DNA of 64,000 nt from Podarcis cretensis (Eukaryota): NCBI GenBank assembly GCA_951804945.1, contig OX638154.1, forward strand, positions 53,010,001 through 53,074,000, read 5' to 3'. The stretch's first letter is position 1. Each line of letters begins with the position of its first letter. The position numbers were made by a program, and so were the translations under genes. The notes beneath the pieces are model-generated. The model saw nothing but the letters and a program-made list of their open reading frames with translations, did not search any database and was not told where the DNA came from. Shown one piece after another: positions 4,223-54,300 of this stretch.

Positions 4223-4440
4223 CAGTGGTACCTCAGGTTAAGTACTTAATTTGTTCTGGAGGTCCATACTTAACCTGAAACTGTTCTTAACCTGAAGTAC
4301 CACTTTAGCTAATGGGGCCTCCTGCTGCCGCCGGAGCACGATTTCTGTTCTCATCCTGAAGCAAAGTTCTTAACCTGAAGCACTATTTCTGGGTTAGCGG
4401 AGTCTGTAACCTGAAGCGTATGTAACCTGAGGTACCACTG
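4223..4440. mobile_element. Tc1/mariner (Tigger/pogo-like) MITE
   Basis: TIRs CAGTGGTACCTCAGGTTA / TAACCTGAGGTACCACTG flanked by TA duplications. Confidence 0.88.
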
Positions 4441-6229
4441 TATCTGTAAAATAGAAACAGAGGCTGATAGTGACTTTTTTGTTGTTTAGTGACTTATCCA
4501 ACACCATAAAGTTAGTCCAATCAAAGTTAGGAACTAAGTTCAGGGTTCTTAGGAGCTAGTTTAACCCACCACCAGCCATGAGGCCACACTGGTTCAAACT
4601 GCTTGCTTTAGAAAGCAAGTACAGTCCAGCAGATAGTGGATTTAGAAGCGTTGACTTTAAATCACTGCTGAACAGCCTTGGGCAAAGGGCACACAGGACT
4701 TTGGGCGGCAGGGGCAGGAACAGTACAGAAGCTGTCCGAAACAAAATTACCAGCTGATAGTATTACAAGTAATAGTTGATTCACACAACATTATTGATGT
4801 GACAGTATCTTCTAAAACATATGAGCTGCAGTCTAGTTTGGGGTGAGAGAAAAGACATTCCGTGAGAATGCACACAGCTCTCTCCTGCAAGTAAGGGGAA
4901 TAGGGGTCCTGGGGGTGCTGTTGCCTCCCCACCCCAAAACTCAACTATCAGCATACTTACTTGTGCACTGAGCAACAATCCTATGCACACCCAATTTTTA
5001 CTGAACATTACATACGCAGGAGGAAACTACAAGTCTAATTAGTTTGCACACTAATCCCAGAAAAAAATGCCCTCTGGTTTTAGTTAGCTTTCTTCTAGAC
5101 AAATTTATGATTAGGATAAAACCTACAAAACTTTTTCTTTAAACACTCTGTTAAATGGTTTCTGAATCAGGTTAAATTGTGAATATGATCAACCAGAGCA
5201 ATTTAGTTTTTTCAGTTTAGATATAATTGAACCAAGTACAAATTGAGGCAGTCTGAATAATTGAGACAGCAAAATAATTAAGAGAACTTGCTCAAGCAAA
5301 TCTTCAGGGAATCCCTTAGCACCTCAACTTGCCATAGTGCCAATTGTTACACCACACTCCTAGCTATTGGATGCTTGTCATTTGCCTCAAGGTTTATTGC
5401 AACCACTCGCAACAGAAATGCATGGGGAGTGGGTGGGTGATGGCAAGTGAGCAGAGTTTTGCCCAGAGGCATGTGATACAAAATGTAGGCTCCCTGCATT
5501 TTGGTAGAGAATCCCCCAACTATGTTACTTGTACCTCTATTTCAAAATTAAAAAGGCATTGCACTCAACCCACAAACATTAGTAGTTTAACCTTTTCTGT
5601 TTCTCCAAAAAAATATATGGTTTACCCATGCATACATTACTGGCAGACATTACCAAGGATTTCTAAACAGGACTGCCAAGGGGTAAACTAAGCTACTCCG
5701 GGGTGGTGCGTGCTCAGTGGTAGTAATCTCCAGGAAGAGTGGTTACAGCACCCATAATTAAATATCTGTTAAGTGTGGAAGCAACTGGATTTTGATACAG
5801 TCGCTGCAAAATACACTACAGATACGGTTGTACTGGTGTGAATACATGCATCGCCTGCCAGAGTTCTTAATGCAGCCAGATATTTCTACACCTTCACGGG
5901 GAGGGGAGGGACAAAAACCCACAGCTTTCAATGGGACTTATTTCCAAACAAATACTGTATACGTAACTCCTATGAACACTTAGTTGGAAAGAAGACCATG
6001 TGGAACTCACTTCAATGCAAACACGTGTAGTTTCACTCGCCACGTATAATACCACGTTGCGCTTAATGCACGTTAGAGGTACACGTTGTTGTTGTTGTTT
6101 TCCCCCCTCCCTCCTTCTTTTAACAATTTTTCCATCCCCAAGCCCACCAAAAGGGGAGGGGAATCGAAATAAAAAAGCAGAGCCTCCGGGACAGGAGCGA
6201 TTCCCCTATTTTCTACCCCACCTCCTGAT

Positions 6230-9029: not shown

Positions 9030-9117
9030 ATAGAATCATAGAATCATAGAGTTGGAAGAGACCACAAGGGCCATCGAGTCCAACCCCCTGCCAAGCAGGA
9101 AACACCATCAGAGCACT
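9030..9117 (-). mobile_element. CR1 LINE 3' end fragment
   Basis: Reverse-strand (ATTCTATG)n tail and CR1 3'UTR core; essentially identical to the start of the 18689 copy. Confidence 0.8.
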
Positions 9118-10571
9118 CTTTTGCACACTTGTACATGTGGCTTGGACTTTAGACATTAATTCTGCTGTTATTGATTAATCCATCTTTCCTTCCCCCCCTC
9201 AGATTAGCATTTTATAGTCGTGAATTTCAAATACACTATTCAAATCATATAAAATAAAGTTAAACATAAACCCAAAAGATAAGAATATTATCCTGTATAA
9301 CATTATGTGTTTTAAAGAATTAAACACTGAGTTTCAGATCATTATTCTTGCAACATAATCCATGAAAAAAATCATAGTGGATCAGTTCAATCATACTTCT
9401 AATCTAGCACAGTGTTTCAATACTAAACTTTGTTACCCATAAGTAAGCCTCGCTGAGTTCAATGAGTTCAAACCTACTTGGAAGTGTGCATTGAGCTTTT
9501 TGTGTGTCTTACTTCTGAGTAAACATTTATTGAATTAGTTTGCCCATCTCGTTTTTCCTCCTCCTGGATTATATAATCACCAGTCCTGAGTGTCATTATT
9601 CCACAATGCATACTAATTCAAACTCTTGATTCTTTACAATAATGTAATAGCAGCCTGTATCTGAGAAGTAGCATAGCATTAAAATGGAAATATTGTTTCA
9701 ATAAATGGAAACACCGACATGCATTTAAAGGCAACTGGGACTTGGGGCAGGTGTTATTTGCTTCTGAAATGATTCATTATTCCTCTCAGTCAACCTTCAT
9801 GATTACTGCAGTCATTTGGCCCAAATCCATACATCTCAGAGGCACAGAAACAAATCCCCATTTGGCTTCTCACATGATTACTTCTCCACAGTGTTATCTG
9901 TCTCTTGGAATCAAAGTAAAAAAGAGGTATCCCAGAGGAAAGGAACAGAAAAGTTGCATAAGAAAGTTGAGCAGAGAGAAAATAAAGCAACAATAAATAC
10001 CTGAGTTGAAGAGAACAGATGAATAAGCTATTCAAAGCAGCATGTATGAGCCACTGACAAGAGAATAGCTCATGTGAATAAGACTAACTAATGAATAGCA
10101 GAGATTTTAAAATAATTAACCTTCAAATAGGAAAAATAGATTATCCAGTAACATGCCACCTCCCTGGTTACAGGGAAATATGGCACTGGTATCTTGAAAA
10201 CACTGTTGATAATGTTGTTTTTGGCTGAATCAACAAAATACTGAGTTTCTGTTTGCTTCCAGTTACAGCTAAGTGACTGAAAATGTGGCTTTATTTGGCC
10301 TTGCAGGATAATGTGCACATCAATGGTTAAGAATAGTATATGCCTCTGAGCGTAAAGTAACATTCTCTCACCACTAACAGCCCAAAGGTAATCTGGGATT
10401 ATGGAAAAATCCACATCAAGCAACTCCCATTTTATAAAACCTGTTTGAACAGAACTATTGGCTATTCAGTGTTGTAATTCCAGCAGAAAACTGACAAAAC
10501 AATTTGATTGAATTTTATACTACTTACAATCAGTGCATTTTCTAGTAAAAAAATAGGTGCTAGTACTACTA

Positions 10572-15200: not shown

Positions 15201-17812
15201 ATGTCAGCAGGAGATGCTCACATTGGGAAGCCAGCCCCAGACTTTCTGGCCACGGCTGTAATGCCAGATGGGCAATTCAAAGAAATCACACTCTCTCAGT
15301 ACAAAGGTAAGTGCAATAAAGCATGTTGTATTTGTATTTGTTGGCAAGGGTTTACTGAGGTACTGATAAGTATGTGACATGTATAAAACCCTAACTTAAC
15401 TGTCTGGACTAACAACATAACCTTCTTTGATTCTGAAATGGAAGTTTTGTTGGCATTCACAAAAATGCATTGGATAGTATTGCAAATAAGTCCTCAGAAA
15501 GTTACTAACACATCTGCATGTAGGTACCCTATTCTGTTCTAGTATGTATGTTGTCCTTGCATGTGTCACTTCTGCTAGCTTGGAAGAAAATAGTTACGAC
15601 TTTTATTTGCAGCACTTCTTTTGTTTATTTGGAGATCAAGGAGAGAAGAGAGCATGGGTGGGAAACTTTCAGCCTACAATCCAAACTAGGCTCACTAGGC
15701 TGTCCTATATGTGACCTCAGGTGTGGCAGATGCCCAGGGAGTTCAATCCTGCTTTGTGATGTATACAGTGGTACCTCTGGTTATGTACTTAATTCGTTCA
15801 GGAGGTCCGTTCTTAACCTGAAAATGTTCTTAACCTGAAGCACCACTTTAGCTAATGGGGCCTCCCGCTGCCTCCACATTACCGCCGCCCAATTTCTGTT
15901 CTTATCCTGAAGCAAAGTTCTTAACCTGAGGTACTATTTCTGGGTTAGCGGAGTCTGTAACCTGAAGCATATGTAACCTGAAGCGTATGTAACCCGAGGT
16001 ACCACTGTATATCTCTCTCTTAGCCCTCCCTAGTCGTCCAACTCACCTGTCAAATCAACTGGTGGCAGTATGACATCAGATGACTGACAAGTAAGGTGAT
16101 CGTGTGCAAAGTTTGCTAGCCATGGTGGCAGAAGATAAACAACTGGCCTGCCATGCCAAAAAAGGCTCCTCACCTCTGGGGTAGAATGCCACAAAGCTGT
16201 TAATGTTTGGAATCAGAAATTTGTGACTTTTGAATTGCTTCCAGCTTTGCTGTGGTGGGAATCTTAACTTGTTACCTTCTTCTCCAGGGAAATATGTTGT
16301 GTTCTTTTTCTATCCACTTGACTTTACCTTTGTCTGCCCAACTGAGATCATTGCATTCAGTGACAGATCTGAGGAGTTTAGAAAAATCAACTGCGAAGTG
16401 ATTGGTGCTTCTGTCGACTCTCACTTTTGCCATCTTGCCTGGTAAGAATATTTGGACCTCAGCCTTTTTATTCTCTGGGGGTCTCCTACGTTAAAAGTTA
16501 TAAGCCTATTAAATGGGTGAAAGAAGTAGCTACCAACAAGTGACTATTGCCAGCTATTTCTCTCCCCCCCCAACCCATCCTCATGACCTGTGCAAGAGAG
16601 AGAAAACACCATCCTGCTCACAAATCAATTTGTGCTAGAAAGAGGGTTGGTTAAGGGTTTTTTGCCCACCCTTCACAATCCTGTTCTGATCCAGTCCTGT
16701 AGCTTTTTAAGTGTAGTCATCTTAAGTCCCTGAACTTGAGCAGCTTGACCCAATGAAGCTGCTTCTCTGGTAAGAACCATTATGGTAAGAACAACGTGGG
16801 TTTCCTTTATTGGATATTGTAAGAGCAGTGTGGAACCGGACCACTAGGAAGCTGTTCCCACACCACTCCAGTAACATGGATTGGGACTTATTCCAAACTA
16901 GTGCTTGAAACTAGACAGGAAGTTTTGGGTCACTGCCTCTTTTGCAAAGACCACTGAATCTCCTGTACTTTAGATATTCTGCTCCAGTCGAATGTGTAAG
17001 TGTACAGAAGGACAAGTATATTATTGAAATACTAACCTGCTTTATAAAATGCCTTTCTTCTTCTTGTTAACAGGATCAACACACCCAAAAAACAGGGTGG
17101 ACTAGGCTGCATGCGTATTCCCTTGGTGTCTGACACAAACCGTGAAATTTCTAAAAAGTATGGAGTATTAAAAGAAGATGAAGGCATTTCCTACAGGTAA
17201 GGTTACCACTGCAGCCTCTTAGTGACTTGTGGTATATAGAGCACTGCATGATAAAGGTTCTAAAAGATAAAACTTAATCAGAGGGAGAAGCCCACAGAAA
17301 ATAAGTGAATCAAGTTTTGAGTCAACATGCACACTTTACTAGCCCTGTTAATAAGGCTGCCCTTAATTATGAATGTCCTTTTCACTGGGAAGAGGAAAGT
17401 GAATGTGTGAATATGTGCAATCTCCATTTGGCATCTTCCCAGATCCGCTATCAGCACCTGGGTTGAAAAACACCAATTCAAATTTAAACTCCGTTCTTCA
17501 GAATAGTGCTAGTATCTTGTAACAAAAGTTTGAACATTCAAGTTAGAAGTCTCTTGAAGGGTGAAAGGTAAAGAGGCTGTACGTAGAAAGTTTTACCACA
17601 TTCCTTTATGAAATGTTCTATATAGGTTTTAGTGCTTGGAATTGCAAATGAGTCTCTCTATAGTTTTGCTTTTAATTTATATATAGTGTGGAAGTTGTAC
17701 CAGATCTTAAGAGAACTGGTTTTGCTGTTTTCAGAAGAACTAAAAGGGTACAGAACTTGGTATTGAATGCTAGCTTGTAGTTTTGTGTATTCTGCCACCA
17801 TACATTTAAGTG

Positions 17813-17850: not shown

Positions 17851-20137
17851 CTTCTCTCTTTAGGGGCCTCTTCATCATTGATGATAAGGGAATCTTGCGC
17901 CAGATCACAATCAATGATCTCCCTGTTGGTCGCTCAGTTGATGAAACACTCCGGCTAGTTCAGGCTTTTCAGTTTACAGACAAACATGGAGAAGGTAAGA
18001 CTGTCAAATTCAGGCTAGGCAAGCTTGAACTGCAGTACGTTTCTCAGTGAAAAAGGAGGATGCACTTAACAGTTCATAGCGTATCCTCTTCCCTGCAAAA
18101 GGGGATACTATGTTTAAGGAAACATAAATGTGAAAATCTAGGACTATACAGTGGTACCTTGGGTTACATACGCTTCAGGTTACATACGCTTCAGGTTACA
18201 GACTCTGTTAACCCAGAAATAGTGCTTCAGGTTAAAAACTTTGCTTCAGGTTCAGAACAGAAATCGTGCTCCGGCGGCGCGGCAGCAGCAGGGGGCCCCG
18301 TTAGCTAACCCAGGAATATTACCTCAGGTTAAGAACTTTGCTTCAGGATGAGAACAGAAATTGTGCAGCGGCGGCACAGAGGCAGCAGGAGGCCCCATTA
18401 GCTAAAGTGGTGCTTCAGGTTAAGAACAGTTTCAGGTTAAGAACGGACCTCTGGAACGAATTAAGTACTTAACCCGAGGTACCACTGTAGTTCTCTAAAA
18501 CAGTATCTCATTGATAAAAATCCAGTTCCTGAGTAGCATTTTGTATGGCTAAAAAAAAGTCCAGGAATAGGTAAATAGAAATAGGCTTTTAAGAGTCTCT
18601 GTGGTTTCTAGCCATATCTACAGGACAAATAAGAGATAGTATTGACAGCTGGTGGAGGGGCAGAACATCTTTCCACCGAGAAACTAGAGTCATAGAATCA
18701 TAGAGTTGGAAGAGACCACAAGGGCCATCGAGTCCAACCCCCTGCCAAGCAGGAAACACCATCAGAGCACTCCTGACATATGGTTGTCAAGCCTCTGCTT
18801 AAAGACCTCCAAAGAAGGAGACTCCACCACACTCCTTGGCAGCAAATTCCACTGTCGAACAGCTCTTACTGTCAGGAGGTAGACAGCAACTACTGTCCCT
18901 GTAAAGACAGTATCCCATATACACAGTAGCATTTTTCCACATAAGTGAGTAGCTCCCATTCATTCCCATGGCGTTTGGGGGCTGCTGTGTTAGAGAAAGC
19001 ATTGGCACCTCACATTATTTGCTTGTCTTCTCTGTGGGATCCTTGTTGAGGCCATTTCCTACAGAACATACCATATTTTTCCGTCCATAAGACACCCCCA
19101 TGTATTTTTGCAGCAACAACCAATCGCTAGTCCAACCTCAACACTATCCATGTATAAGACGCCCCCTAATTTTTCACATCATTTTTTAGGGAAAAAACGT
19201 AGACTCAGGGCACAACATGCATCCTTTTCTTCCCTACTGCCAACAAATAAATGTCAGTTATAGCTCATATATATTACTATTCTGCCACATTGCCACAATA
19301 TTGTGATATTCGCAGGCTCCCTTGCAAAGGTTTGTTTCCAGGTGGGCACTAAGGGCATTCCTCCTTTATCACTGAATCAAGACTTTTCTTAAAAGACCTG
19401 CATCAACCACCTATTTACTTACAGAAAGCAATATATTCTTAGTCAGTGAGATATATTTACATTAGACTCTACCCTGACCAGAACAATTAAAACAGAAACA
19501 TGTATTTACTTAAGGAACATAACGTCCAGGACTGTGTACAGACTGTTCTAACTTTCATAATGTCTATCCTTTTCTACATATGCCTCTCATTGGCTCGCTA
19601 AACTCATTCCCATTTCATTCAGTCCCTCAAAGGGACTCTTTCAGCTGTTACTTTTCAATGGACACACAATCCTAGTCTTTCGCTCTCAACTCTGGCCCAT
19701 ATTCCATCCAACCTCCCTGCTCTCAGTCATTATTTCAGTCTTCTGTTGCTGTCAGGCATTTATTTGGCTAGTAATTTATATGCATAAACTGTGAATCGCT
19801 TTGGTTTTTCCAAGAGGCGGCTGTCCTGTACAACTCAGGTACACAATTGCATCAAGAAGCCCTTCTGTAGGAGAGGTGGGGTGGTGACTGCTGCTAGTTC
19901 CAGCAGTTAGTCAAATAGATGACGGAGCTTGTAGTGATCCAAGTCATCTTGTGTGAAGTCTAGTGATGGACATAACAACTTAGTTCTTTGTATGCTGTTT
20001 TCGGTCTGTACTCCTGGAGTAACTTAAAAGTTAATATTATTATCTCCTCAGTGTGTCCTGCTGGCTGGCATCCTGGGAAAGACACTATCAAGCCTGATGT
20101 TCAGAAGAGTAGAGAGTACTTCTCCAAGCAGAACTAA
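15201..20137 (+). CDS. PRDX1: Peroxiredoxin-1 (typical 2-Cys Prx), 199 aa; coding exons 15201-15306, 16288-16441, 17074-17196, 17864-17994, 20052-20137
   Basis: Exons of 106+154+123+131+86 = 600 nt, all GT-AG. Peroxidatic [19 protein letters not shown], resolving GEVCPAGW and C-terminal EYFSKQN motifs present. AATAAA at ~20238. Confidence 0.97.
15766..16007. mobile_element. Tigger/pogo-like MITE (same family as 4223)
   Basis: CAGTGGTACCTC...GAGGTACCACTG with TA TSD. Confidence 0.88.
17816..17849 (+). repeat. (TG)n microsatellite abutting the PRDX1 acceptor at 17863
   Basis: About 17 TG units directly before CCTTCTCTCTTTAG. Confidence 0.95.
18149..18487. mobile_element. Tigger/pogo-like MITE with an internal duplication
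   Basis: Same TIRs with TA TSD; the internal ACTTTGCTTCAGG...AACAGAAAT...TTAGCTAA block occurs twice. Confidence 0.86.
18689..18877 (-). mobile_element. CR1 LINE 3' fragment
   Basis: Encodes the CR1 ORF2 C-terminal-like [35 protein letters not shown], followed by an (ATTCTATG)n tail. Confidence 0.88.
19071..19202. mobile_element. Truncated Tc2-like MITE
   Basis: TA|CCATATTTTTCCGTCCATAAGACAC end resembles the 51540 element. Confidence 0.5.
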
Positions 20138-22084
20138 ATGTGCTGTGTGATTGTTGTTGTTTTTTGTACAAGGCATCTATTCTGTAACCTGTAAAAGTAA
20201 AAGCAGACCTGTACTTGTCATTCCCTTTATTTTTAATAATAAAATTATTGTGAGCTAACTGGTTTATAGTTCAGATGCCATTTATTCTGGATCAATCCAA
20301 TGTATGTTACTAGGACAGCTTTGGAGTAAATGGATTATGAACTGAAAAACTGGTCAGTACTTAATAGCTATTGTTAATAGTATATGTCCTTTTGATCAGA
20401 ACCAGGAAAGGGAAATTGCTCCTTGTGCTAGTGTGGATAAAAAGGACCAGTACCATGTATATGATTGGCCCAGGGATGCATGTAGAACAGTCGGTTTTTC
20501 TGATGTTTTGTACTGTCATTAAACTCGGGGGAAATCGGAATCCTATGTCTCTAATTAATTGAGTGATCTCAGTATAGCAGGAACATGCAATAGCTCTTCT
20601 GAAAGGGCATTATTTCTGTTAGAAAGCTTATCTTTGTACTCCTTTGAGGGGAGATGGTATTTCTGAGCTGGGTGTGAAAAGATAATTCAACGTGTAAAAA
20701 ACCCTAAGCTTTATGCAACCCCTGCTACATAGATTTTGTTAACCATGTTGCCAAACCCTTTTAGCCATGTAACAGATGCTGCAGCCTTCAGTCTAATAAC
20801 TCATGACTTACAGATTTTCACTATCCAAAACCTGAATGGCAAGCCCAAAATCATCGATTGATCTTAGTCCTTGCATAGTCCTAATTGCCTTCCTATCAGT
20901 ACTGGCTCTGATAAGGTCCTTTCCCTCTCACAACGTTTTGGTACTTACGCAGTTCTGGAATTTCTCTACATTATTTATTTTCTGTTTTCAAGTGTATGAA
21001 CTGCCAAGTCATAGAAAAAAATCATGGCAGTATACAGTACAATAAAACAACATAAAATACAAATCAAATTACCAACAAGGAATCAAATAAATCATCTAAA
21101 AATGACTGAAGAAAGCAACTTTTATCGGTGGCAAATTATCAAAGTGGTAATTCTTGAAACAATGTTCCAGAGCACCTGTGCTGCTATGTTAAATGTTGGT
21201 TCCTGTAGAAACTTAATCTATGTCAGGAGGGCTTCAGAAGAGTGCTGTGATCTGGCCGGTTTATAAGGGATAAAGTGGTCATTTAGGTAACGTAGATGTT
21301 TAGAAGCATTGGGGATATGATGGTACCGTGAGAGACCCAATAGTAAAAATTCCAGGGGTTTATAGTCCTCCAGAGTCATTCTCTGAAAGGTCCTGCAGAA
21401 AGGAACAGAACCAGTGAAGTAAAGTGCCACAAATCCCCACCCAACACTGTTGGTCCAAGTGGGTACCTTGATTGTTGTCAAAAAAGAGTGAGCTGCGGGG
21501 TCACACTCTCCTGTGATCAAGGTCATCCATCAGGACCACTAATGCTGACTAGGTCCCAAAACAACCTGAAGCCAGACTGAGGTAGCTCAAGATTACATGT
21601 TTCACACCTGTGCTCAGTAAATTGGAGGATCAACATACTTCCCAGAAATCTGAAAGGAATAAATATATGATATATAATTTGATAAAATAGCATCTTAAAA
21701 GCAAACTTCCTGTTCTTGTCCAAGCATTAGAATACAAAAGAGCTGCCAAAAGTGCTTGATCTTGAGAAGCCATTCAGGTTGAAGAACATCCTGCAATTTA
21801 GGGCATATCCTGAGGAAGCGGGAAACAGTACTTGCTGCACTAACTGATAGAACCCACAATGTGGCACTGCCACCTAACATTAGGAAATATCCCCACAAGG
21901 CACTATATTAAAAGGACTTGATTTCCTAAGATTGCAGAGCATCCATTGAGATGGTGATATTCAAATACCTCCTATAGCTGGGATCCTCTCTTAAATTGAT
22001 AGCGTCAAGTGGATTAATGCAGTAAGGATTACTAGCAGACTTCTGGTTAATTCAAAGTACATTCTTCTGAGGCAGTGCCTTCAC

Positions 22085-22566
22085 TTTATCCCCCTTGCCC
22101 TGCTTCCATGGGTGCCTCTAAGAGGACTGGCTGGAATGGGCTGGCACACACCCAAGACTTCTGTAGCTGTTTTCTATTTTCTGTGAGCTTTGTACCCAGG
22201 GCTGAGTGTTCTTTGGCTCTCCTTTCCTTCTGATTCTCCATGTTTGGTATCCTCACTTGCCGTCATACTAGTCTTTGCTGTGTTACACACCTGTGAAGGT
22301 AATAATAGGCATCTGGTGTATCACACAGACAAACAGAATTAACGGCTAGAAAAATTAGAGGGGAGCTAACAAAGGCAGTTGCTATTTCTTCTTGTGTACA
22401 AGGAGTAAGATTAGTGAGGATTAGGAATCAGAAGAGCTTCATACTTCTGTACCAAGAACAATTGCCACATTGATCCTTGCATGTGGAGCGCACAACTTTT
22501 CAACATCATTATGATATTGGCAGATAACACTGTAGATTATGGATGTAGAAATCTAGCTTACCACAC
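22085..22566 (-). pseudogene. Decayed partial tandem duplicate of SELENOP2 (copies of the last two exons at ~22445-22566 and ~22085-22290)
   Basis: 22445-22566 gives CGKLDFYI...VE..VVRSTCKDQCGNCSWY, with frameshifts and a stop, versus CSRLAFHI...VEAAVRYTHSKDYCGNCSWY. 22290 starts after the same acceptor TTACCTTCACAG and gives VCNTAKTSMTASE versus VNKTASTNVTTTE. An intronic block is also shared (22375-22404 vs 28519-28545). Confidence 0.8.
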
Positions 22567-24454
22567 CTCCAAAGCACGTGAAGATAAGCAGGATAAGAAC
22601 TGGTGCCACAAAACCTGGAGATTAATCATGATGCTTTTAAAAATTATATGTTGTAAGCTGTTCTTAAAACTTTTTTTGTAGGTGTGGGATTTAAAATTGC
22701 AGAAAGTTGCCATTAAAGTTGCAGCAACCCATACCTAAAACAAAAATAAAATATTTAGATGTGCTGGAGAAGACTGTTCTTATTTTTAGGAAATGGCCTG
22801 TTGAGTTTTGAGCTCACAGCTAGTTTTCAAATGTATTTCATGCAAAAATAGAATCATATACATTAGAGTGAAGTAATTATTCTTACTGTATTTTATGAAG
22901 CTCTACCAATATTTTGTAGAAGCTATACAATATAAAACCTACATATTCATGAGAGAACTTCTGAGTTGTCGGTAGAAATATTGTTTAAAATGATGATTTG
23001 AAATAATTTCTTAAACTTTTCTGAGCTCCTCATTATAAAATGAATATCACTGTAAACCAGAAGCATACTGCTTTGAATTATTTGATAAATGAGTTTTATA
23101 CTTGGGAATTACATGTGAGGACTCTTATTTATACAACAGATGGTGAAAGATTCAAAGCACAATCCCATGCATTCGTATCCAGAAGAAAATCCTAGTGATT
23201 TCAGTGTGCATGTAAGATTTTAATCAGTATGTAGAAGATTGCAAACTTAATGAATACTCAAACATGGCCTATCTATAGGGAATGACTCTTAAATAAGTTT
23301 TAGAAACTCATTAGCATGTTGGATTTTATATTGTATCACTTATGTAAATACTCCTGAATACTATATGAACATAACATTCCAATGGAAGCAATTATTCTAC
23401 ATGCGTAAACTTTAAATGTGCCAGACCATTTTCTATAAACGAGTTTCTACTGCACTGTTAGACATTTTAATTGAATAATGAAGCCAGTTAGCAAAACCCC
23501 TCTGAATTGGCTAGATAGGCTTTTGTTTCTTTTTACTTCACTGCCCAACAGGGGAAAGTGGATTGGGCAGGGAAAGGGTACTTAAGAGGCATTAAAGCAT
23601 ATTTACCCCTCAGCTGCCTCCTCCGTTGCTGATTAAAGTCTAATGCTGTCCCACTTTTGAGGCTTCCAACAGAAGTACTACATCTCCTAAATGCAGCCCA
23701 TAGTGTGAATTCCATGGAGAAATAGACATGGACACAGCCTCTCCTTCCCTCCTCATCTCTCTCTCTCACTCACTTACACACACACACACACACACCATTC
23801 TGCTTTTCATTCTTTCGCTGATCCCTCAGATGAACAGGGTTAAAGGGCCTCTAGAGCAAATGACAATGTTAAGTAGAAGATAAAAAAGCTGTACAGATGT
23901 TTACACAACCTCATGGTCCTTGGTGCTAGTCAAGTAAGAGACAAGCTTATGGGTGCAAATGCAGGGGGAATTGTAAACAGAGCATACATGAAGGGAGGAA
24001 GGAGGACTGTTCCTCACAGACTGTAGCCTAGCAAATTTTATCACTCCTTTCTCTGTGTGCTATACTACCCACCGTGTAGACTCGTGTAGGTTTGATTTTT
24101 AAGGCAAATAATCAGAAGGGTAAGAGGATCCGAACCCTCCTTCCACTCAGTACTTAATTTTCCATAGTTCCCTGCCAAAACGCTTCTCATCCAGTCAAAG
24201 TCACTTCCAATATCCATGGAGAAAAATTATTGGAGGGGAAGATGTTAACATCAATAATATTGTTACTGCTTCCCTCTGGAGAGCTTTAACAATAAAAATC
24301 TGTGGGAAAGGCTTTGCTGTTCTACCAGTTCTACCCTAAATGCTAAGGCTCCTTTAACTGAGTATCTATTTGATTTGATTCTGTAATCAAGCAGTCAAAC
24401 AAAACCCTAATGCGATTTAGTGCCAAGGCAAAATACATGTAATACTAAAAATAG

Positions 24455-24580
24455 TTTTATTATTTGCACCCCACCCATCTGACTGGGTTGCCCCAGCCAC
24501 TCTGGGCTGCTTCCAACATATATAAAAACATAATTAAACATTACAAAACTTCCCTATGCAGGGCGGCCTTCAGATGTCTT
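24455..24580 (-). mobile_element. LINE (L2-like) 3' fragment
   Basis: Reverse complement of the AAGCCACCCAGAGTGGCTGGGG tail seen at 43078-43120. Confidence 0.65.
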
Positions 24581-26666
24581 CTTTTTCCATTCGCAATGGG
24601 ATTGCATCCTCCACCATGCCTGAGGGCAGCAGGGGAGGCTGTGTGTGGCACAGGCAATTCTCTTCCAACATCTTGCCTCCACTTTTATCCCCCTAGCATC
24701 TACCACCTGAGGTGGCTGCTTCACTCTGCCCAATGTTAGGGCCAGCCTTGTCCATCAAAAAAAGACTACGCCTGCAATGCTATAGCCACATACTTGGCAG
24801 TAAGTGCCATAGAACTCAAATGAGGCTTTATTCTGAGTAGGCATAAACAGGCAAACTATAAGAGATTTTCTGGCTGCTGCAATCAGAGAGGCCAGTTTAA
24901 AGAGGATCTTTAGCAAATATTTGACCTGCATGTTAGATGAGATTAGCATTAAACATGATAATAATAGTCTTGCTCCAGTTTTGCTGTGAACCTGTGGACT
25001 CTGCTGCAAATGTAAGCAAACAGGACATGACGCAAAGGAGTTTAGTTTGGATAATGGGAGCTGTGGGCTGGGGCAGAGGGCATCAGGAAAGCTGGATCAG
25101 AGCCCAAGGCCAGCATTAGGTAGGAATGTTGTTGTCCTAAGCAAAACATAATTTTGACCAACTTTTTTTAGCACTGGTACTACTGAAGATTTTTTCTTTG
25201 GTAATTAATAGTATGTAATACTGTACATAGAAATAAAGGGAAGAGATTGTAAATATAATTGGAATGTTAAAAAAAACCAAAATAAGCCAGCCATATAATT
25301 ACTTTGGTTGGTACAAAACTATCAGCAAGAAAATATTCTCTTAACAATTATGACCTAGCTGTTGTAGATTGGGCCTCTACAGATTTCTGGGGGGCAGGGA
25401 TGGTTTCAGCTAGGTATTTACATAAGTAGGAAATGAACTAAAGGAACATAAAAAGGGAATGGAACAGCATGTGGGAAGGACAGCTAAATCTTTGCATGTC
25501 AGTTGGGCAAGTAATCAAATATTACACCAGATCATAGCAGCTACCATACGGCTGCACGGTGGGGTGGGGATATTTTTGTTTGTTACTACGTTATGTATTG
25601 TGGAGAGCAAGATTGCTAAGAACATTAAACTAGTTGTTAAGCAACTAAGGCTGCAAGTTGAATCACAGTTGCGAGCATTTTATTTAGAGTCCATTGTGCT
25701 GGTTATGCCCTGGGTGAAGGCGATTACTTATACGACATATTACCAAAAGCTATAAATTATGTTATAGCTCTAATACATGTATGTTAAGAGTAGCCAGCAT
25801 GTACAGATATCAGGAGAGTTTTGATATACACAAGGGGATAAATAAATCTGCAGTAAGTATGCTGTTTACACCAAAGGTGGGTTGTTAACTATAAGCACCT
25901 GACAGCCTAATGCCCTTTTATTGCTTTGCAGAATTTCAAAGGCTGCCTTCTTCCACAAGAACCTCCTGAACTACTAATATTATACCAGGAGGCCCTTCTT
26001 CAGATCTCCCCACTTTCAGGGACTCTGATTGGGTCTTTCCAGCTATACTGCCCTATCTTTCCTAGAAAAGCTTGCCTGACACCAGCAGCAAGCCTAATGA
26101 ATATCTGGGGCCAGGTGAAGAACTGTTTTATTTCCCCAAAACTTCAAGGTATTGTGTTTTAAATATTATTTTAATCTCATCCTTTCTACTGCTACTGTTC
26201 TGTGCTGCTTTTTTTGTATGTATTGTTATTGTTTTTTTCTTTAACCAGCTAACACATAAGGGCACACACCCTGGGCTGTCATGGAATCTTATGATGTTAA
26301 GTGTATCCTATACTAACTAGGGTTACTTTGGAATAAACAGATTTTAGGTGGATACATATCAGCATTAACAATACAATAAAGACAGATTACACCCTCCCGT
26401 AAATATTTGTAGCAGTAGCTTCCTAAAACTGGGATGTGGAGGACTTGTACAGTGTGCACCCATTCACTGACCTTCAACAAATAACAGGAACCTGGACTAT
26501 TCTCAATAAGGACTGCTTAGTATGCCATAAATGCAGATAAACTATGGGGCATCTCTTAAATGTTGAAGGTGAATACGTGTTCTACAATGCTGGGTACTGT
26601 CTGAAATAAATGACACCATTTGTACATTAAGGTATTGTGAGCAAAGACTTCAAACATTTCAGAGAA

Positions 26667-26672
26667 TTTATT
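26667..26672 (-). terminator. Candidate SELENOP2 polyadenylation signal AATAAA
   Basis: Minus-strand AATAAA ~400 nt after the SECIS. Confidence 0.5.
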
Positions 26673-27072
26673 TCCAACATTCTTCCCCAGAAACAGTTAT
26701 ACTACTTTTAATCAGCAAGCAGTGCATCCCTTTCCATGAATTTTCCTGATAAATGGCATTTTCTTCCCTTGTTCAGCTCTCATAGCACTGACAAACTCAA
26801 CTCTCACCTCAGACTTCTCTGTCTTTCGTACCTCTATCAACATACCTATAAACTTGGCTAATTCTGTCTCACCACTTTCATTCCTACAAACCGCAAATGT
26901 TCTTTACTTCCAGCAACACAACAAATGTCATTTTACAAGCTAGTAATTTGTGTGCATGGACTTTAATGTACAAAATCTTGAGCCCCAGGCTCAAAGTCAG
27001 CCTTCTCTGCCACAGTCAGTCACCCTCCTGCTAATACCAGATCTGATCCCCATCCTTCCATCTCCAAGGACA

Positions 27073-27145
27073 TGCTTTTATGTACAGTGTCAGCATGTGG
27101 TGACAGAAAGTTTACATCACATGCTTCATTGAGTGCAGAAAAGCA
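27073..27145 (-). promoter_or_regulatory. SECIS element in the SELENOP2 3'UTR
   Basis: RNA reads UGCUUUUCUGCACUCA-AUGA-AGCAUGUGAUG-UAAA-CUUUCUGU-CACCACAUGCU-GA-CACUGUACAUAAAAGCA. It has the AUGA/GA quartet, an 11-bp helix II with one mismatch, an apical AAA, and helix I UGCUUUU/AAAAGCA. Confidence 0.92.
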
Positions 27146-27626
27146 GGAAATGCAAAAATGGGGTCAAAATTGGCTTCTCAAGAAGCAGCTCTGTGTTCCT
27201 GAGGAAAACAAGATGGCTTCCTTAGGCAGTCCTCACCACAGAAATGGGATGTATCTAAAAATCCATCTGAGCCCAAGAGGAACACCACCTTAAGGCTTGG
27301 TGGAATAAAACTGGTGCATATGAGGTTAACTGGGAGACAGATTCAAAATGAGGATAGAGGTCTCATTGTGGACAAGCAGTTAAACTTTCCAATCACATAT
27401 ATGACACTACAAAAGTTTGTGTTGTGTCCTCTGCTATCTGTTGAGAGACCTTGAACGTCTAGGGAGTGGAACATTCACTTCCCTTCCCCTGCTGAAAACT
27501 GAGCCATCATATTTCTTCCTTCTGATGCATGTAGGTTTGCCCCCTGGCTCTTCTTAAAAGCTTGCTTAGTGCTAAGTATCCTTATGGCTAACAGTTGGGT
27601 GTTGCACACATTGAAGTTTAAATGTT

Positions 27627-30600
27627 TTATGGGGATTCCCTTGTTTGATGCTTCTGTGAGCGATTCTGAGAGTGGAGAACTGGCTGGTGTGTACTGCTCA
27701 AACCCAAGGCTTTATGGTTGCCGACTCCTCCATGATATGAATAGTGATGGGCTGTGTGCTTGGTGTTAGGTGCTTCTTGGCTTGGCTCATCATGATGGTA
27801 CCTGGGTTCTTCCAGGTGCTTCTCTTTGTGTCCAGATGCCTCAGTTGTCGTCACGTTAGTACTTGCTGTCTTATTCACCTGTGAAGGTAATGAAAGATTC
27901 TATATATGTACATGCAGATGGGCTTAGGGTGAAGACAGAAACACATTTTTAAAAGTGAAGATGGATGTATATATCTGAAGTGATCTGCATTCAGCCCTTT
28001 TTGACAAAATATGTAAACTTCCAAAATAAACTGAGCTCAGAGCAACTGCTACTTTCTGTTTTCAGGAGAAATTGGCTGTGAAGAATGGTGATTGCCTGGC
28101 AGTCACTTAAAAAGTGGTTTTAAAGAATGTGTAAAATAGAAGTTTAAATGAGTAAACATGCTGGATGTTTAGGCGTAGAAATGGTTTTTAAAAGCCCAAC
28201 GTTTGAGAGGCAAAAAGCTGCACAGGAGTTTAAGCCAAGTATATATATCTCTCAAAAGAGCTGGGAGGAAAGAAGGTTTGATTTCTCCAGATCAGAAAAA
28301 CCTGCACCCGCTCTTGGAAGGAGATCTGTTTGACTTCACTCTCGGTATGGTCGAAATGGCTTAAAAGGTATTTATAATATTTTGCTGCCTTGGCTATCAG
28401 GACAGCAAAAAACTAAAATAGGTAATACATCAGCCCCCCCCCCCCCCCGCAATCCCACCTTGAGGAATGAACTTTCAGATCACTGATGGGGCAGGAAGTG
28501 ACACCACAGGACAAGACAGCAGTTACTATTTCTTCTGTCCAAGGAACAATATGCTCCCATTCATTGAGAACAGGAAGCACTTCAACCTGACAAATTAAGG
28601 CTGTTAATTTCTTTTTTTTTCAATAACTGAGGGCAGACTATGGCTACTGGGTGAGGCTCAAGCAGTACATGATGGCAGAAGATCCAGGTCTTGACCCACC
28701 ATGTACAAAACAGGAAGGTGGGGTTGACTTTAGAGATAAGGGGTGCCTGGGTGAGAGGAACCAAACCTTTCCTGCACTTGATGCCACACAGCTTCTGTTC
28801 CAAAGTGTTTTTCTTCAAGTCAATCTCACTTTTAGTATCTGAACTCAACTGGGGAGAAAAGCACTTGGGGGAGTGTGAGAAGCTGAAAGTGGGGGGGGGG
28901 GTAGTTTAGCATTTCCTCCCACCTGGGTTCTCCTGGACCCCTCCACGCTACACTATCTGTGACTGCGGCAGACCTGGTGTCTCCATCTGCAATTTGCTTC
29001 TGAGGTTTTTATTTCAAGATGGTTTACTTCCTGTCGAGATGAAAGATGCTTTGTGGTATCTCAACATCCTTGCTTGTTGTAGCGGCCCAATATAATAAAA
29101 CCCTCCCTTCCACCTTCTCCTCCCACATCCCTGCTGTAAGACCAATCTGATCAGAAACCTAGAATTCCCAGGCAGAAGTTCAGGATGGGCAAATGAGGAA
29201 ACATCTGGCTTAAACAAAATGAGTTGAAAAGGAAGTTGATGAGGGGATTCAAGTCCCTACCTCCTGGCTGCTGTTAGAGGGGTACCAGGAACAATTGCCG
29301 CAGTAGTCTTTGCTGTGTGTGTACCGCACGGCTGCTTCAACATAGGGCAAGTGCAGAAAACTGTATGGCAGCTGGATGTGGAAAGCCAGCCTGCTGCACC
29401 TGCAAAGCCCGAGAGCCATGAAACAAATGGACATAAAGTTAGTGTCAGGAGAGCATGTAATCCACTAATTTACACTGGAAATGAATCTAACCTGGCCTGA
29501 AGAATCTGGTTTTCATCACCAACAGTTGTGAGGCATGATGGTAAAGAGAAACACTTACATCATGGTATGTCCTTTCTTTCCAGATGTGTCCTCAAACAGA
29601 CTTTTTGATAATGTATTCAGGAATCCCGAATTCCATATATCTTACTTTCCTTCCTTCTGCCCAGGCCTGCAGACCCCCATTGGCCTCCCATCAGCAGCTG
29701 CCTATGGAGCAACCCACTTCTGCCCCCACTAGTGCTGCTGATGGGATCCCTACTGGTGGCAGCAGGGGCTTTCAGTAGCCAAGGAAGGAGCTGGACTGAG
29801 CCGCCTTGCAGTCCATTGGATCCTGAGATGGTCCCACTGCCAGAACTGGGCTTCTTCCAGGCTCAATTGCTGCACCAGCTCCAAGCTGGCTCAGTGATCT
29901 GCCTTCCCTCCCTTCTGCCCCGGCTGCTATGCACAGCAGTGGCCCTGACTCTCCAAAAACCCTAATCAGTCTTGGGTGGGTGGGGAGTTAGAATTGCTCC
30001 CTTAAGCACTGACCTGTCATAGATCAGGAAGTCATCCTTGTCCCCATCTAGAATTTGCCAGACGTCAGGCTCCAGAATCTGCTGCTGGTAAACAGGAACT
30101 CCCTCTGGGGCATGCCGTTTGAGCTCCCAGTACATAGCCCTGGAGAAAGGAGTCTTCTCATTCACAATCATGAAGCTGACATTGGTCACTCCTTCAAGTG
30201 ACAGCTTCCTCTGCAAGCTGCCAAGGCTGGTGGGTAGGAAGAACAAGCAACGTTTAGGAATTGCGGTGCACAGATATAGGTTCCAGCCCTGCCCTCTACA
30301 CATACCATGTGGGATATGAGCCTGCACTGCTGGACGGAGGCCCCTTCATTTATCAGTTCACTGGACTTGCAATTACAGCGGTCCCTGCTACATAGATCCA
30401 GCAATAAGTTAAATGATACATATTATGCTTGAGCTGTAATTCACCAGGAAAATTGGATCTACCTTCTATATGTGTGTTATATCTGGCCTGCTGCAGCCCA
30501 GGCCTCAATTTTTGATTGCTGAACTGGAGCTTATAGACAATCAGTTCAGTTCTGTGTTTCCTGGTAGAAAGCCTAGGGGCAAAGATGTGACCTTAAGAGT

Positions 30601-31076
30601 TGTGATATTGCCACTGAACACCAGATACAGGGTTCCAACACATATCTGACTTTCTAGTCACATCCAGACCATCTTTTTAAAGCATGCGACTTTCCCCAAA
30701 GCATTATGGGAACTGTGATTTACCCCCTGACAGAGCTACAGTTCCCAGCACTCTTAAACTACAGTTCCCATGACTCTTTGGGGAAAGCCATGTGCGTCAA
30801 ATGTATGGTGTGGCTGCGACCTAACAGCTCCTGACTCAGGCAATCTTCTCTATGAACTCACCTGGCGGCCTGCTTGAGACAGAACTGTCAGCTGGCTTTC
30901 AACAGTGCCACCACTGTCACTTGGCCCTCCATCCCAGCCATGGGGGCCACCCCATTGATCTTCCAGAGTGGTGCAAGCTGGCATATTTGGGTCCTGTTCT
31001 CAGCCACATCTGCCAGCGTAGCAGCAATTGCCAGGAGCAGCAGCAAGGTTGTTGTGGCTAGGGCTGAATAGCCCAT
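27627..31076 (-). CDS. SELENOP2: Selenoprotein P paralogue (SelPb / SELENOP2), 272 aa with a single Sec at codon 63; coding exons 31076-30862, 30226-30014, 29399-29261, 27878-27627
   Basis: Signal peptide, then GQVTVVALLKAS-UGA-QFCLKQA (UxxC), VYQQ...DVWQILDGDKDDFLIYDRC, YVEAAV...YCGNCS and a His-rich tail. Exons 215+213+139+252 nt are in phase with GT-AG sites. SECIS downstream; no Sec-rich C-terminus. Confidence 0.93.
30655..30818. mobile_element. Palindromic MITE-like element (related copy ~55-150)
   Basis: Inverted arms CTTTCCCCAAAG...TGGGAACTGT / ACAGTTCCCA...CTTTGGGGAAAG. Confidence 0.6.
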
Positions 31077-31139
31077 CCTGGCCACCTCCCTTCAGCCTAA
31101 AGTGGAAGAGAGCAGCTTAAGACCATAAGAACTTCCCTC

Positions 31140-31230
31140 GGGGGGGGGGGTTGAAGGGCAAAAAATAATGAATATGATATGTTTTGATAATTTGTTATGT
31201 TGAAATTGTTAATAAAAACTTTTTTTAAAA
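31140..31230 (+). mobile_element. Severely 5'-truncated non-LTR (L1-like) 3' tail insertion
   Basis: G-run, AATAAA and A-rich end, flanked by the 13-bp direct repeat AAGAACTTCCCTC (31127-31139, 31231-31243). Confidence 0.7.
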
Positions 31231-31467
31231 AAGAACTTCCCTCAGCAGGCCAGATGCAGCCTCTAAGTCTCAGTAGACTTTCTTCTTAGTAAACATAGAT
31301 AGGATTGTCCTACATGGATGCCCTAGTGCCCTGTATTTGAAAGTGACAGTAATGGATGCTTAAAGACACACTCACATATTAGCTGCCCAGGATTTCAGCT
31401 ACAGCAAGGGTTGTTGCTATCCTCTGGCCCTCTGGATATTGTTGCAGTACAACTCCCAGCATGGTCA

Positions 31468-31682
31468 TTAAGAACATATGAAGAGACCTGCTAGATCAGA
31501 CCAAAGGCCATCTAGTCCAGCATCCTGTTCTCACAGTGGCCATCCAGATGCCTAGTGCCACAGCACTCCCTCTATTTGTGATTCCTATTGACTGGTAGGC
31601 AGAAGTGTCTCAGACAGTGGAGGTATCCATCATATCTAGTGGTTATGAATAGCCCTGTCCTCCAGGAATTTGTCTAATCCTC
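31468..31682 (-). mobile_element. Old CR1/L3 3' fragment (related piece ~60555-60625)
   Basis: AAGAACATATGAAGAGACCTGCTAGATCAGACCAAAGGCCATCTAGTCCAGC, typical reverse CR1 tail. Confidence 0.55.
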
Positions 31683-32239
31683 CTGTCTTGCCAAAGGCAA
31701 GGTGGTTCTTTTAAAATGAGATTCAGAAGCAATACAAAATACACAAGTGAGCGAGAAGTTTAAATATTTTATTCTAAAACAGCAAGCAAGGTATACATAT
31801 ACCAAGCAAGCACTTCAACCTGCCACTTGGAAGCCCTCAAGAAGCGGCGATGCGACTCCCCCAAGTACCCTCAGTTTGCACGGCCCTGTGGCCAATCAGT
31901 CTGTGCATGAACTTCAAAGAAACTCTGCCCAAACCGTCCAATATTATAGACAGCCTGTGTGGCTTCCAAGACTGGCTACATGCAGATCACCCATTAGCCA
32001 CCCCCTCCCAAGGCCTCACTTTCTCAAAACAATGTCCAGCATCAAAGAAGGTACCCAGAATTATCCTCCACAACTGATGAAGGCAGCTGTGAGTGGGGCT
32101 TCACCTCCTCCCAAAGTTCTCAGGACATTAAAGACTGTTCTCACAGCATCAAAAAAATTAACAAGAGCAAGGGAGGGGGAAAGAACAGAGGCAGGAAGGG
32201 TAACTGTGTCAGATCACTAACTCCTCAATACATTTTGTT

Positions 32240-36043: not shown

Positions 36044-37267
36044 CAACTAGTAGGACTGGTACAGCATGATGAGATATCCATGAGTATATGAAAAACAGTT
36101 CCTTTGAGTTTCCAATTCAGGCATGAACTCCCTAATATTCCTACTCTAAAGTATATGAGAGGACAGATTTGACAATGAGCAGTCAACTATGGGGTTGGAG
36201 GAAATTTAACTGAATGTGAACTGACATGAGAGAACCTGGGTGGAAAACTGGTTTTCTGGGATAATAAAAGTGAATTGATTGAGTGATGTGAGGTACAAGT
36301 GAAATAGAGTTCCTCTGAACATGTGCAGAACACCTCTGCCTTGCAAGAGAAAAGCTGTCATGTATAATACATTTTGAAACAGGATTTCCTGAGCAGATTG
36401 TATGGCTTCCAGACTGCCCCTTAAGGCCCCCGTACTCATGTTACCCCAACAACGCTGGGACTGCTGCAGTGCTGCTGCTTCTTGCATTGCTGGGTAACAG
36501 TGAGAAGCCCAGACCATGAGTAACAAAGCCCACATCACAGCTTCTTCCTGTGCCAATGCTAACCATTAAGATACACTCATGTACCATGCAGGAGTGGTGC
36601 TGCTGCAGATCCCATACTAGCAGAGTAACGTAAGAACCTAGAAATTATGTCCTGTCCCCATTTTCTTGCCAGGTTTCTGTACAACTAGTACCTACAGGCC
36701 ATTCCCAATCAACCCCCGCCCCCAAGTATTGGCCTTCTCCAAATCTATACCTTTCCAGCAGTACACACGCACTCTTTTCCCTCACAATAGTCCCCACCCC
36801 ACTTTAGAAGCCCTGAAGGGAGAGAAAAGAATTTCCCAAGATCTGATAAAGACACATGCAAACCTGATGTACCTGGAACTGGGAGTAGAGAGTGCAGCTG
36901 AGTGGGACACCGTCGAGGGCAGCCTGTGGAAGTCCCATCCACCTTGGATCTGCAAGTCTCCGAGAGGATAGGGTGATTTCTGAGATTTCCAGGAACTCTT
37001 CTCATTGTGAAACTTTTGTTGGTGAGCTGAGAGTTTGTTTCGACCCTGGGTGCTGAGAGGGAGGGTGTTGTCAGAAGGAAAATGCATTGATATGGATTTA
37101 AATATAGTGGTAAATTTCTATTACTGTAATATTTTTATGTGTGTTTTTGTAATATTTTGTTTTGTCTGCTGTTGCTGTTTCAGCTTATTGTAAACCGTTT
37201 AAGAGACATTTTAAATAAGCAGCACAAAAATTAAATAATCAGTCATCATCATCAACATCATAAAGTA

Positions 37268-37490
37268 CCGTGGTACCTCAGGTTAAGTACTTAATTCGTT
37301 CCAGAGGTCTGTACTTAACCTGAAACTGTTAACCTGAAGCACCACTTTAGCTAATGGGGCCTCCTGCTGCCTCTGTGCCGCCGCTGCACAATTTCTGTTC
37401 TCATCCTGAAGCAAAGTTCTTAACCTGAGGTAATATTTCTGGGTTAGTGGAGTCTGTAACCTGAAGCGTATGTAACCCGAGGTACCAATG
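37268..37490. mobile_element. Tigger/pogo-like MITE
   Basis: Slightly mutated CCGTGGTACCTC / GAGGTACCAATG TIRs with TA flanks. Confidence 0.85.
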
Positions 37491-37779
37491 TATACCACTT
37501 CCTTGTGCCTTTCCACTGAAATCTAAAACTGTTACGAGTGTTCTTAAAAATACTTTCAAGATTGAATTGCAAAGCTCCTCCTCACATAAAAAATAAAAAT
37601 AACAACAATACTTAACAAGGCTGCCCACTCAGTGGTGGCGGTATGAAAGCAATGTATTTTAAGAACATTCCTTGGGATTTTTAAAAATAAAATAATTGTA
37701 GCACAAAACAGTGTTGTCAACAAAGGTAAAATAAACGCTCTTGGTTGTTGTTGTTGTTGGTTTTTTTTTTTGGGGGGGG

Positions 37780-38559: not shown

Positions 38560-39762
38560 ATGCCTGGTCTTCTGAACCGGATGTGCCACATTGGGTTCCA
38601 CGTCCCTGAAGGGCAACAGCTGGCCAGCAACCTGGTGCGCCAGTTTGGATTCGAGCTGTTTGCTGCACGGGGGGCAGAATGGAGCAGGCAGATGGCCTTC
38701 CGGAGAGGGGATGCCGTTTTTCTCGTCAATGAAAGGCTGAAGTCTGCCAAGAGAGACGCTCCACCTGTGCCATCTTCAGGCTGCCGCAAGGATAAAGGAA
38801 TTCTGTACGACGTGGACCTAGAATACGCCGTCAGTACAGCCTCCAACATTTGCTTTGAGGCAGAAGATGTACCTGGCATCTCCCAAAGCCTACAGGAACG
38901 AGGATGCCAGATTCTCATCCCTCCCACAGCCGTGGGAGATGAAAATGGCCACGTCACTTATTCAGTAGTGGGATCCATCATAGGCAACATCAGCCACACA
39001 CTGCTTGACAGATCTCGGTACAGTGGACCGTTCCTGCCTGGTTTCCACATGGTGGAGGGTGCTCCCAAGGTCCAGGTGGGTGGCCGGGTGACACATTTTG
39101 ACCATATCACCTATGCTTGCCCCCAAGGTAGCTCGCAAGCTGTGTTGGACTGGTACAAGAACTGTTTGGGATTCCAGCGCTTCCCCATCCACCAGCAAGA
39201 CAACGGTACTGATGGTTATACAATCCAGGGAGCTGGTATGGGTCTTCGTCTTACTGCCATGCAGTCCAATGGGAGCGATTCGACTCAGCTTTGCAATGAC
39301 TGTAAAATTATTCTAGCTGAGTCTCTGTCAGAGCAAAAGAAGAACCAGGTGGATACTTTCTTAGAGCAGCACGGTGGATCGGGCATCCAACACGTGGCAC
39401 TCTACACCACAGGTATTATAGGGGCCGCTGCGGCCATGGCCAGATCTGGCGCAAACTTTTTCAAGCCCCCCTTATCATACTACAGTGAGAAAAGGAAGGT
39501 GGAGGAGATAAGGCAAGCTGGGCAAAATCTTCAGCTCCTGAAGGACCACGGTATCCTTTTGGATGCTGGCGTAGGAGGCAACGGTGGCTCTGGAGGCCTT
39601 TGTGAGAAGCAATACCTCATGCAGATCTTCACAAAGCCTCTCTTTACAGAGGATACTTTCTTCCTGGAGCTTATAGAGCGATGTGGGGCCACAGGTTTTG
39701 GCGAGGGAAACATTCGTGCTCTCTGGCAGTCTGTACAAAACTATATGGACCAGCAAGTTTGA
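38560..39762 (+). CDS. HPDL: 4-hydroxyphenylpyruvate dioxygenase-like protein, 400 aa, single coding exon
   Basis: First ATG at 38560 in the 411-codon ORF. HPPD-family motifs CHIGFHV, FDHITY, GIQHVAL, LMQIFTKPLF, FFLELIER.GATGFG.GNIRALW; adjacent to MUTYH. Confidence 0.95.
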   Translation: MPGLLNRMCHIGFHVPEGQQLASNLVRQFGFELFAARGAEWSRQMAFRRGDAVFLVNERLKSAKRDAPPVPSSGCRKDKGILYDVDLEYAVSTASNICFEAEDVPGISQSLQERGCQILIPPTAVGDENGHVTYSVVGSIIGNISHTLLDRSRYSGPFLPGFHMVEGAPKVQVGGRVTHFDHITYACPQGSSQAVLDWYKNCLGFQRFPIHQQDNGTDGYTIQGAGMGLRLTAMQSNGSDSTQLCNDCKIILAESLSEQKKNQVDTFLEQHGGSGIQHVALYTTGIIGAAAAMARSGANFFKPPLSYYSEKRKVEEIRQAGQNLQLLKDHGILLDAGVGGNGGSGGLCEKQYLMQIFTKPLFTEDTFFLELIERCGATGFGEGNIRALWQSVQNYMDQQV

Positions 39763-53996: not shown

Positions 53997-54300
53997 TGCC
54001 AGCCTAGAAAAAAAATGTACCACTGTCAAATTATATTTCTCTTCACCATCTCCAGATCCAAAATTAGCAATATGTGCAACACTCTATACTGTATACAGTA
54101 CCCTGTACTCCATCAAGGTGGCAAGATGTTAATAAGAACTATGAATATAAATGCTGACAATATGGATAGACAGAACTATAGGGCAACTGAAGAGTGATAT
54201 AAGAGGCCTGCCTTTATTACTCCTTAATAGATGTAGTCTACATATACAAGAATAGACAGATAATGAATCCTGAGTTTCTGTAATAGATTGCATCACTTTA

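Follow-up and report, generated by a model that had tools for sequence, protein, structure and literature searches.

One of the closest described systems to the locus reported here is the single-Sec selenoprotein P, SELENOP2 or SELENOPb (Pfam PF04592), whose family was reportedly the subject of an evolutionary study by Baclaocos et al. in 2019. Synteny around SelPb is conserved from fish to chicken in the account of PMC6301783, with reptiles outside its coverage, and a second copy, SELENOP2b, is on record from salmonids (PMC6301783, PMC13134290). The SELENOP section of a 314-genome survey names salmonid duplications alone and no tetrapod one, with two SELENOP genes given for reptiles (PMC13134290). 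Among the papers returned by our literature search, judged by title or the start of the abstract, none dealt with a SELENOP2 relic or with SELENOP2 duplicates in reptiles.

The window, that is, the whole 64,000-nt stretch of Podarcis cretensis DNA that we analyzed, holds an intact SELENOP2 gene of four coding exons on the minus strand, facing PRDX1 on the plus strand (Table 1). The exon preceding the last exon of PRDX1 has Peroxiredoxin-1 structures as its best PDB matches. SELENOP2 exon 1 begins with a sequence resembling a signal peptide and carries an in-frame TGA within its UxxC motif, and the product of exon 2 is 100% identical to Podarcis muralis and P. lilfordi proteins. A SECIS pattern scan of the whole window returned one minus-strand site, that of the intact gene, with a fold z score of -2.26 (9 of 200 shuffles were equally stable). 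This hairpin has a canonical core, yet Rfam misses it (E up to 5), and across 19000-32000 Rfam reported neither a SECIS nor any match at gathering level.

Beyond SELENOP2 stands an intronless HPPD-like gene (38560-39762), which we take to be HPDL, faced by minus-strand exons at 43500-54800 that presumably belong to MUTYH. The window also contains a palindromic repeat family with 85-95% identity (4219-4443, 15764-16011, 18145-18492 and 37263-37494), presumably a MITE; two members lie in PRDX1 introns, and one is a nested inverted pair. An 88-nt stretch occurs at both 9031-9118 and 18685-18772 (98.9% identical), and these are probably pieces of a young repeat. Genome-wide, a protein search found two SelP_N loci, SELENOP2 here and one on a second contig (C11), and no further intact SELENOP locus; because this search misses even the half-copy described below, other decayed copies could escape it likewise.

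Table 1. Features of the PRDX1-SELENOP2 region, in positions of the window.
Feature	Position	Strand	Basis or remark
PRDX1 last exon and main 3' UTR	20052..21200	+	sequence, RNA contigs; stop 20135-20137
Unspliced low-depth RNA-like contigs over the copy	21150..22955	+ (inferred)	related species
Decayed copy of SELENOP2 exon 4, coding part	22085..22290	-	similarity dwindles near the gene's stop codon
Copy of SELENOP2 intron 3	22291..22444	-	154 nt against 1382 in the gene
Decayed copy of SELENOP2 exon 3	22445..22566	-	122 nt against 139 in the gene
Second faint SELENOP2 intron 3 match	24118..24214	-	against 28749-28839, 63/98 columns
SECIS-like hairpin of intact SELENOP2	27089..27129	-	pattern scan; AUGA, AAA loop, UGA
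SELENOP2 exon 4, coding part, intact; parent of the copy's exon 4	27627..27878	-	His-rich tail, TAA stop
SELENOP2 exon 3, intact; parent of the copy's exon 3	29261..29399	-	
SELENOP2 exon 2, intact	30014..30226	-	
SELENOP2 exon 1, coding part, intact	30862..31076	-	translation, Pfam SelP_N, splice joint

Between PRDX1 and SELENOP2 lies a decayed copy of SELENOP2 exons 3 and 4, on the strand of the gene and downstream of it at offsets of 6833 nt (exon 3) and 5588 nt (exon 4). The original prediction had placed duplicates of these exons 5.5 to 7 kb downstream on the same strand, had noted that the copy retains the motif CGNCSWY, and had named alignment of the two exon pairs as its check; all of this held. 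Exon 3 aligns with 22449-22581 on the same strand with a score of 273.5, against a mean of 120 and a maximum of 155.5 in 60 dinucleotide shuffles (z = 14.9), and exon 4 aligns with 22092-22308 with a score of 341.5 (shuffle mean, 168; maximum, 228.5; z = 10.5). Neither score was reached by any of 300 real genomic stretches per exon. Identity to the gene is about 70% in each exon (98 of 139 and 155 of 221 ungapped columns), and plain blastn recovers a sole match, the piece at the exon-4 acceptor (81% over 53 nt; E = 1e-6). The copy's exon 4 (22269-22283, minus strand) also shares an exact word of 15 nt with the gene's exon 3, probably by coincidence, given that exons 3 and 4 of the gene are themselves similar at this place.

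Intronic sequence accompanies the copied exons. The 15 bases upstream of exon 3 in the copy agree with the end of the gene's intron in 12 cases, the last 13 intronic bases ahead of its exon 4 are all identical to those of the gene (13/13), and a GT donor is retained after exon 3. The end of the previous exon is absent ahead of the copy's exons. Because intronic flanks are present where a retrocopy would carry that end, the copy is a DNA duplicate of SELENOP2 and not a processed retrocopy, as had been proposed: flanks at both acceptors, the donor and a colinear intron block agree on this.

The lengths of the two introns, originally put at about 1.38 kb and 155 bp, were close to those measured; the difference may come from shrinkage in the copy, as first proposed, or from growth in the gene. 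Within the two introns, 22375-22411 aligns colinearly with 28519-28552 in 29 of 37 columns. With intron compared against intron, none of 1,000 shuffles and none of 300 real stretches reach the score of this block; a region-wide search yields 8 real stretches out of 74 with as high a score, so the block is supportive and not stand-alone evidence. The earlier claim of a shared intronic block is therefore borne out when the two introns are compared with each other and falls short as evidence standing by itself.

The second faint match to intron 3, at 24118-24214, does not fit one simple duplication. Its score of 51 is reached by none of 74 real stretches (top, 46), and it has the same orientation as intron 3 but is out of colinear order with the copy. 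Two candidate accounts were rejected. As a common repeat, the block should recur, and no match above 39.5 occurs in 400 kb on both strands; whole-genome DNA searches, which are blind to 70% matches, returned the query itself only. Nor did it pass as part of a third copy lying midway at its offset, all seven constrained tests for which were negative (7/7; p = 0.06-0.99).

The copy scores closer to SELENOP2 (frameshift-aware score, 35.9) than to the SELENOP1 exon of the same genome (20.5; null maximum, 17.7). It keeps the Trp of CGNCSW, a residue found among the matches listed in 18 of 319 proteins, all of them squamate-named or squamate-like. Codon likelihood favors squamates (7) over turtles, crocodilians and birds (9 sequences) by 25 log units, with a bootstrap of 0.998 for squamate affinity (0.91 for exon 3 alone), and rates geckos and Podarcis as equal (-0.2). 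In a maximum likelihood tree the copy falls inside squamates with 97% support and beside geckos with only 53%. The approximately unbiased (AU) test retains all seven placements, outside squamates included (p = 0.135), and the site signals for placing the copy in the codon likelihood conflict.

Divergence from the gene gives a rough date. With 0.00178 changes per site and My as the squamate rate (PMC7116210), the Kimura two-parameter (K2P) distance of 0.33 corresponds to 94-188 My and the dS of 0.65 to 182 My (83-402); at 0.0008, a slower rate likewise in use (PMC8735750), these estimates more than double. Judged from such sequence comparisons, the copy likely arose early in squamate history, about 90-190 My ago.

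Decay is evident in both exons. In exon 3 the acceptor CAG has become GAG, indels of +4, -1, -3 and -17 nt have accumulated, the 17-nt deletion alters the exon phase, and three stops stand in the frame of the gene. Exon 4 has 38 open codons from its acceptor, followed by a stop, and carries many deletions. In exon 3, 26 differences set G/C of the gene against A/T of the copy and 6 are the reverse, a bias expected of drift; exon 4 is without such bias (25 versus 26).

The remainder of the gene has left no detectable mark. The first reading of this DNA had found no copies of the first two coding exons, and our alignment searches agree: neither exons 1 and 2 nor introns 1-2, the 3' UTR or the SECIS has a detected copy in the interval (for exon 1, exon 2, UTR and SECIS, p = 0.49-0.92 when compared with 300 real stretches), and the 200-kb flank (100 kb on each side) holds no match to any of these pieces. 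A SECIS remnant proposed by eye near 21600 was rejected (score, 18; p = 0.92). Of the features of a functional gene tested at the copy, start, signal peptide, UxxC, exon 2 and SECIS are all lacking. With 30% divergence and so many deletions, the copy may once have included exons 1-2 and lost every trace of them.

Taken together, these observations are probably best read as a dead, passively transcribed, intron-bearing fragment from an early squamate tandem duplication. A tandem DNA duplication at that time, by unequal crossing-over or a similar local event, would have produced the copy of exons 3 and 4, with the 5' half lost afterward or absent from birth. The copy likely never yielded a working protein and would have no function now, being read passively, antisense, in what is presumably a minor long PRDX1 3' tail. 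The ratio of nonsynonymous to synonymous differences (pN/pS) between copy and gene is 0.51 over 43 gap-free codons (26 of exon 3 and 17 of exon 4; bootstrap, 0.26-1.06), with the last 7 codons of exon 3 excluded, along with 13 of its first 39 that aligned poorly. A value of about 0.5 is expected when one copy evolves neutrally and the other is constrained, as for a copy dead on arrival, and the overall ratio is compatible with a copy that was never under constraint while its parent was.

It is unlikely that the copy is instead the remnant of a complete second SELENOP2 that once worked and survives, intact or relaxed, in other lizards. Slightly more doubtful still is the fuller form of this idea, that early squamates had a working tandem SELENOP2 in the PRDX1-SELENOP2 interval, now dead in wall lizards and alive elsewhere. 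Exon 3 lends it some weight: identity to the gene by codon position is 22, 23 and 16 of 26, and pN/pS is 0.27 (0.09-0.75) against 1.13 in exon 4, which hints at a period under selection, with the aligned blocks having been chosen by motif likeness, so that pN is lowered and the exon-3 value is biased low. The missing exons 1-2 and SECIS at the locus speak against a complete gene. So do the proteins: in a pool from four sets of matches, one of which comprised 120 of 643 and another 150 of 350, 198 of 319 proteins could be scored on the exon-3 columns of the copy, and among these matches listed none exceeded ordinary squamate SELENOP2 (best, -61.8; own gene, -62.7).

Two leads bear on the same question. 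The text of Fig. S22 in PMC13134290 lists together four Pogona vitticeps leaves, in a block with one leaf each for 8 other squamates, tuatara, 8 turtles and a crocodile; the presence of platypus and marsupials identifies the block as SELENOP2. These leaves would favor a second gene, but they seem to cluster among themselves, which suggests Pogona-specific copies, gene fragments or duplicates of the assembly, or perhaps an expansion in agamids; the SELENOP section of that survey, which has salmonid duplications only, makes no mention of them. The protein records P0013 and P0142 have a squamate-type exon 2 with 6 and 5 private residues, respectively, at sites conserved elsewhere (at most 3 in 24 references), and on sequence grounds are possibly relaxed SELENOP2 duplicates in other lizards. 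We regard both as leads for squamate SELENOP2 duplicates, not for a living orthologue of the copy. The suggestion in the original prediction of a paralogue still intact in related reptiles is thus unlikely to be right: only two exons are detectable, the overall pN/pS fits death from birth, and no protein closer to the copy appears among the matches listed.

RNA data over 19800-31400 came from 4 runs among 6 RNA-like rows, covering 3 studies of one related species; the label "RNA-like" is a guess of the tool, and the contigs carry no strand and lose rare forms. All three joints of intact SELENOP2 are present in 4/4 runs. Its introns have scant or zero cover, which indicates little genomic DNA in these runs. 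The copy is covered in all four runs, and in three of them one contig crosses its intron unspliced. The main PRDX1 UTR contigs extend to about 21160-21430 at depths of 145-304, and the contigs covering 21150-22955 have depths of 4-14, so that the long tail has roughly 2-10% of the depth of the main UTR contig, contig depth being a poor measure. The latter contigs end at 22832, 22929, 22953 and 22955, with TATAAA at 22931, about 20 nt ahead of their common end. Only one of the four runs connects them to the main PRDX1 UTR contig through an overlap above 3 nt (72 nt). Bins within 23670-25200 are partly without RNA cover, which we do not take as silence. The sequence AATAAA occurs in the PRDX1 3' region at 20238, 21041, 21086, 21658 and 22745. 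The main 3' UTR of PRDX1 seems to be 1.1 kb long, with a minor form that extends to about 22955. The cover, the end position and the TATAAA suit transcription from the PRDX1 strand, and the contigs over the copy likely represent this minor long 3' UTR or read-through, antisense to the copy.

These data weigh on the idea that duplication involved the last exons alone and supplied SELENOP2 with alternative 3' exons, such that exon 3 might still splice to the acceptor in the copy and yield a 38-residue alternative tail, which we consider very improbable. It would account for the missing exons 1-2, and the copy does lie downstream on the same strand, with the exon-4 acceptor as its best-kept piece and 38 open codons in phase behind it. 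No splice joint to the copy occurs in any of the four RNA-like runs of the related species, however, and the SELENOP2 contigs end at variable positions between 26369 and 26769. By established Sec biology, moreover, such an isoform would bypass the sole SECIS, so that the UGA of exon 1 would act as a stop.

A regulatory role for the antisense RNA is unlikely, and we give very little credence, even less than to alternative exons, to the specific proposal that the copy is a cis antisense regulator coupling the two antioxidant genes, through base-pairing of the long PRDX1 tail with the SELENOP2 mRNA or with the acceptor of exon 4. In its favor are RNA-like cover in 4/4 runs from 3 studies, ending near TATAAA, an exact match of 16 nt across the exon-4 acceptor, and a predicted duplex with exon 3 whose energy, -91.9 kcal/mol, is well below that of shuffles (-39 +/- 5). 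That energy is 30% of a perfect match (-306 kcal/mol), however, and is explained by descent alone. A pseudogene-derived antisense regulator would be expected to form a long, near-perfect duplex with its target, of about 21 nt or more, and none of that length exists between copy and SELENOP2: the longest exact pairing runs are 11 nt for in-register exonic sequence (exon 3), 15 nt for any word against the spliced mRNA, and 16 nt across the exon-4 acceptor. By hand calculation, about 0.36 runs of 16 nt are to be expected in 360 columns at 70% identity. The low depth of the tail also counts against regulation.

Retroposition, chance and misassembly can be practically dismissed as sources of the copy: blastn does find one 53-nt piece alone and most of intron 3 is missing, but splice flanks and donor are kept, the z scores are 10-15 with 0/300 controls reaching the alignments, and the stretch recurs in contigs of the related species at about 96-98% identity, with 38-68% of its sampled words found in runs under 7 other organism labels.

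The dead tandem fragment is the reading that we prefer, and several observations sit less easily with it. They are the retention by the AU test of a placement outside squamates, the unbiased differences in exon 4, the low exon-3 pN/pS, the out-of-order block at 24118-24214, and RNA evidence that comes from another species, is of guessed kind and without strand, and joins the PRDX1 UTR by a real overlap in one run. For annotation, the copy matters because it could pass for alternative SELENOP2 exons. It also marks one duplication of the SELENOP2 locus in squamate history. An intact duplicate in some lizards would make this the first known duplication of SELENOP in tetrapods, overlooked by vertebrate selenoproteome surveys, and an antisense PRDX1 tail, if true, would tie a peroxiredoxin to a selenoprotein.

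Among known systems, exons 3-4 of the copy are of the squamate SELENOP2 type, and unlike coding SELENOP2 or SELENOPb the copy is without the start, signal peptide, UxxC, exon 2 and SECIS of such a gene. With salmonid SELENOP2b it shares the status of a second SELENOP2 copy; the salmonid genes are intact, lie on other chromosomes and stem from whole-genome duplication, whereas the lizard copy is local and dead (PMC6301783, PMC13134290). The copy is likely transcribed antisense to the mRNA of its parent, and it resembles in this the pseudogenes that give rise to antisense RNAs. Antisense RNAs and endo-siRNAs derived from pseudogenes are known, for example in mouse oocytes; unlike these, the lizard copy is only 70% complementary, and its exact runs do not exceed 11-16 nt. 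The copy differs from typical unprocessed pseudogene fragments beside their parents in comprising exons 3-4 only, in its far shorter intron and in its position beneath the likely extended 3' UTR of a neighbor. It agrees with them in its tandem arrangement on the same strand, its exon order and splice flanks, its stops and frameshifts and its lack of a poly(A) junction, and it is an ordinary unprocessed (duplicated) pseudogene fragment of SELENOP2.
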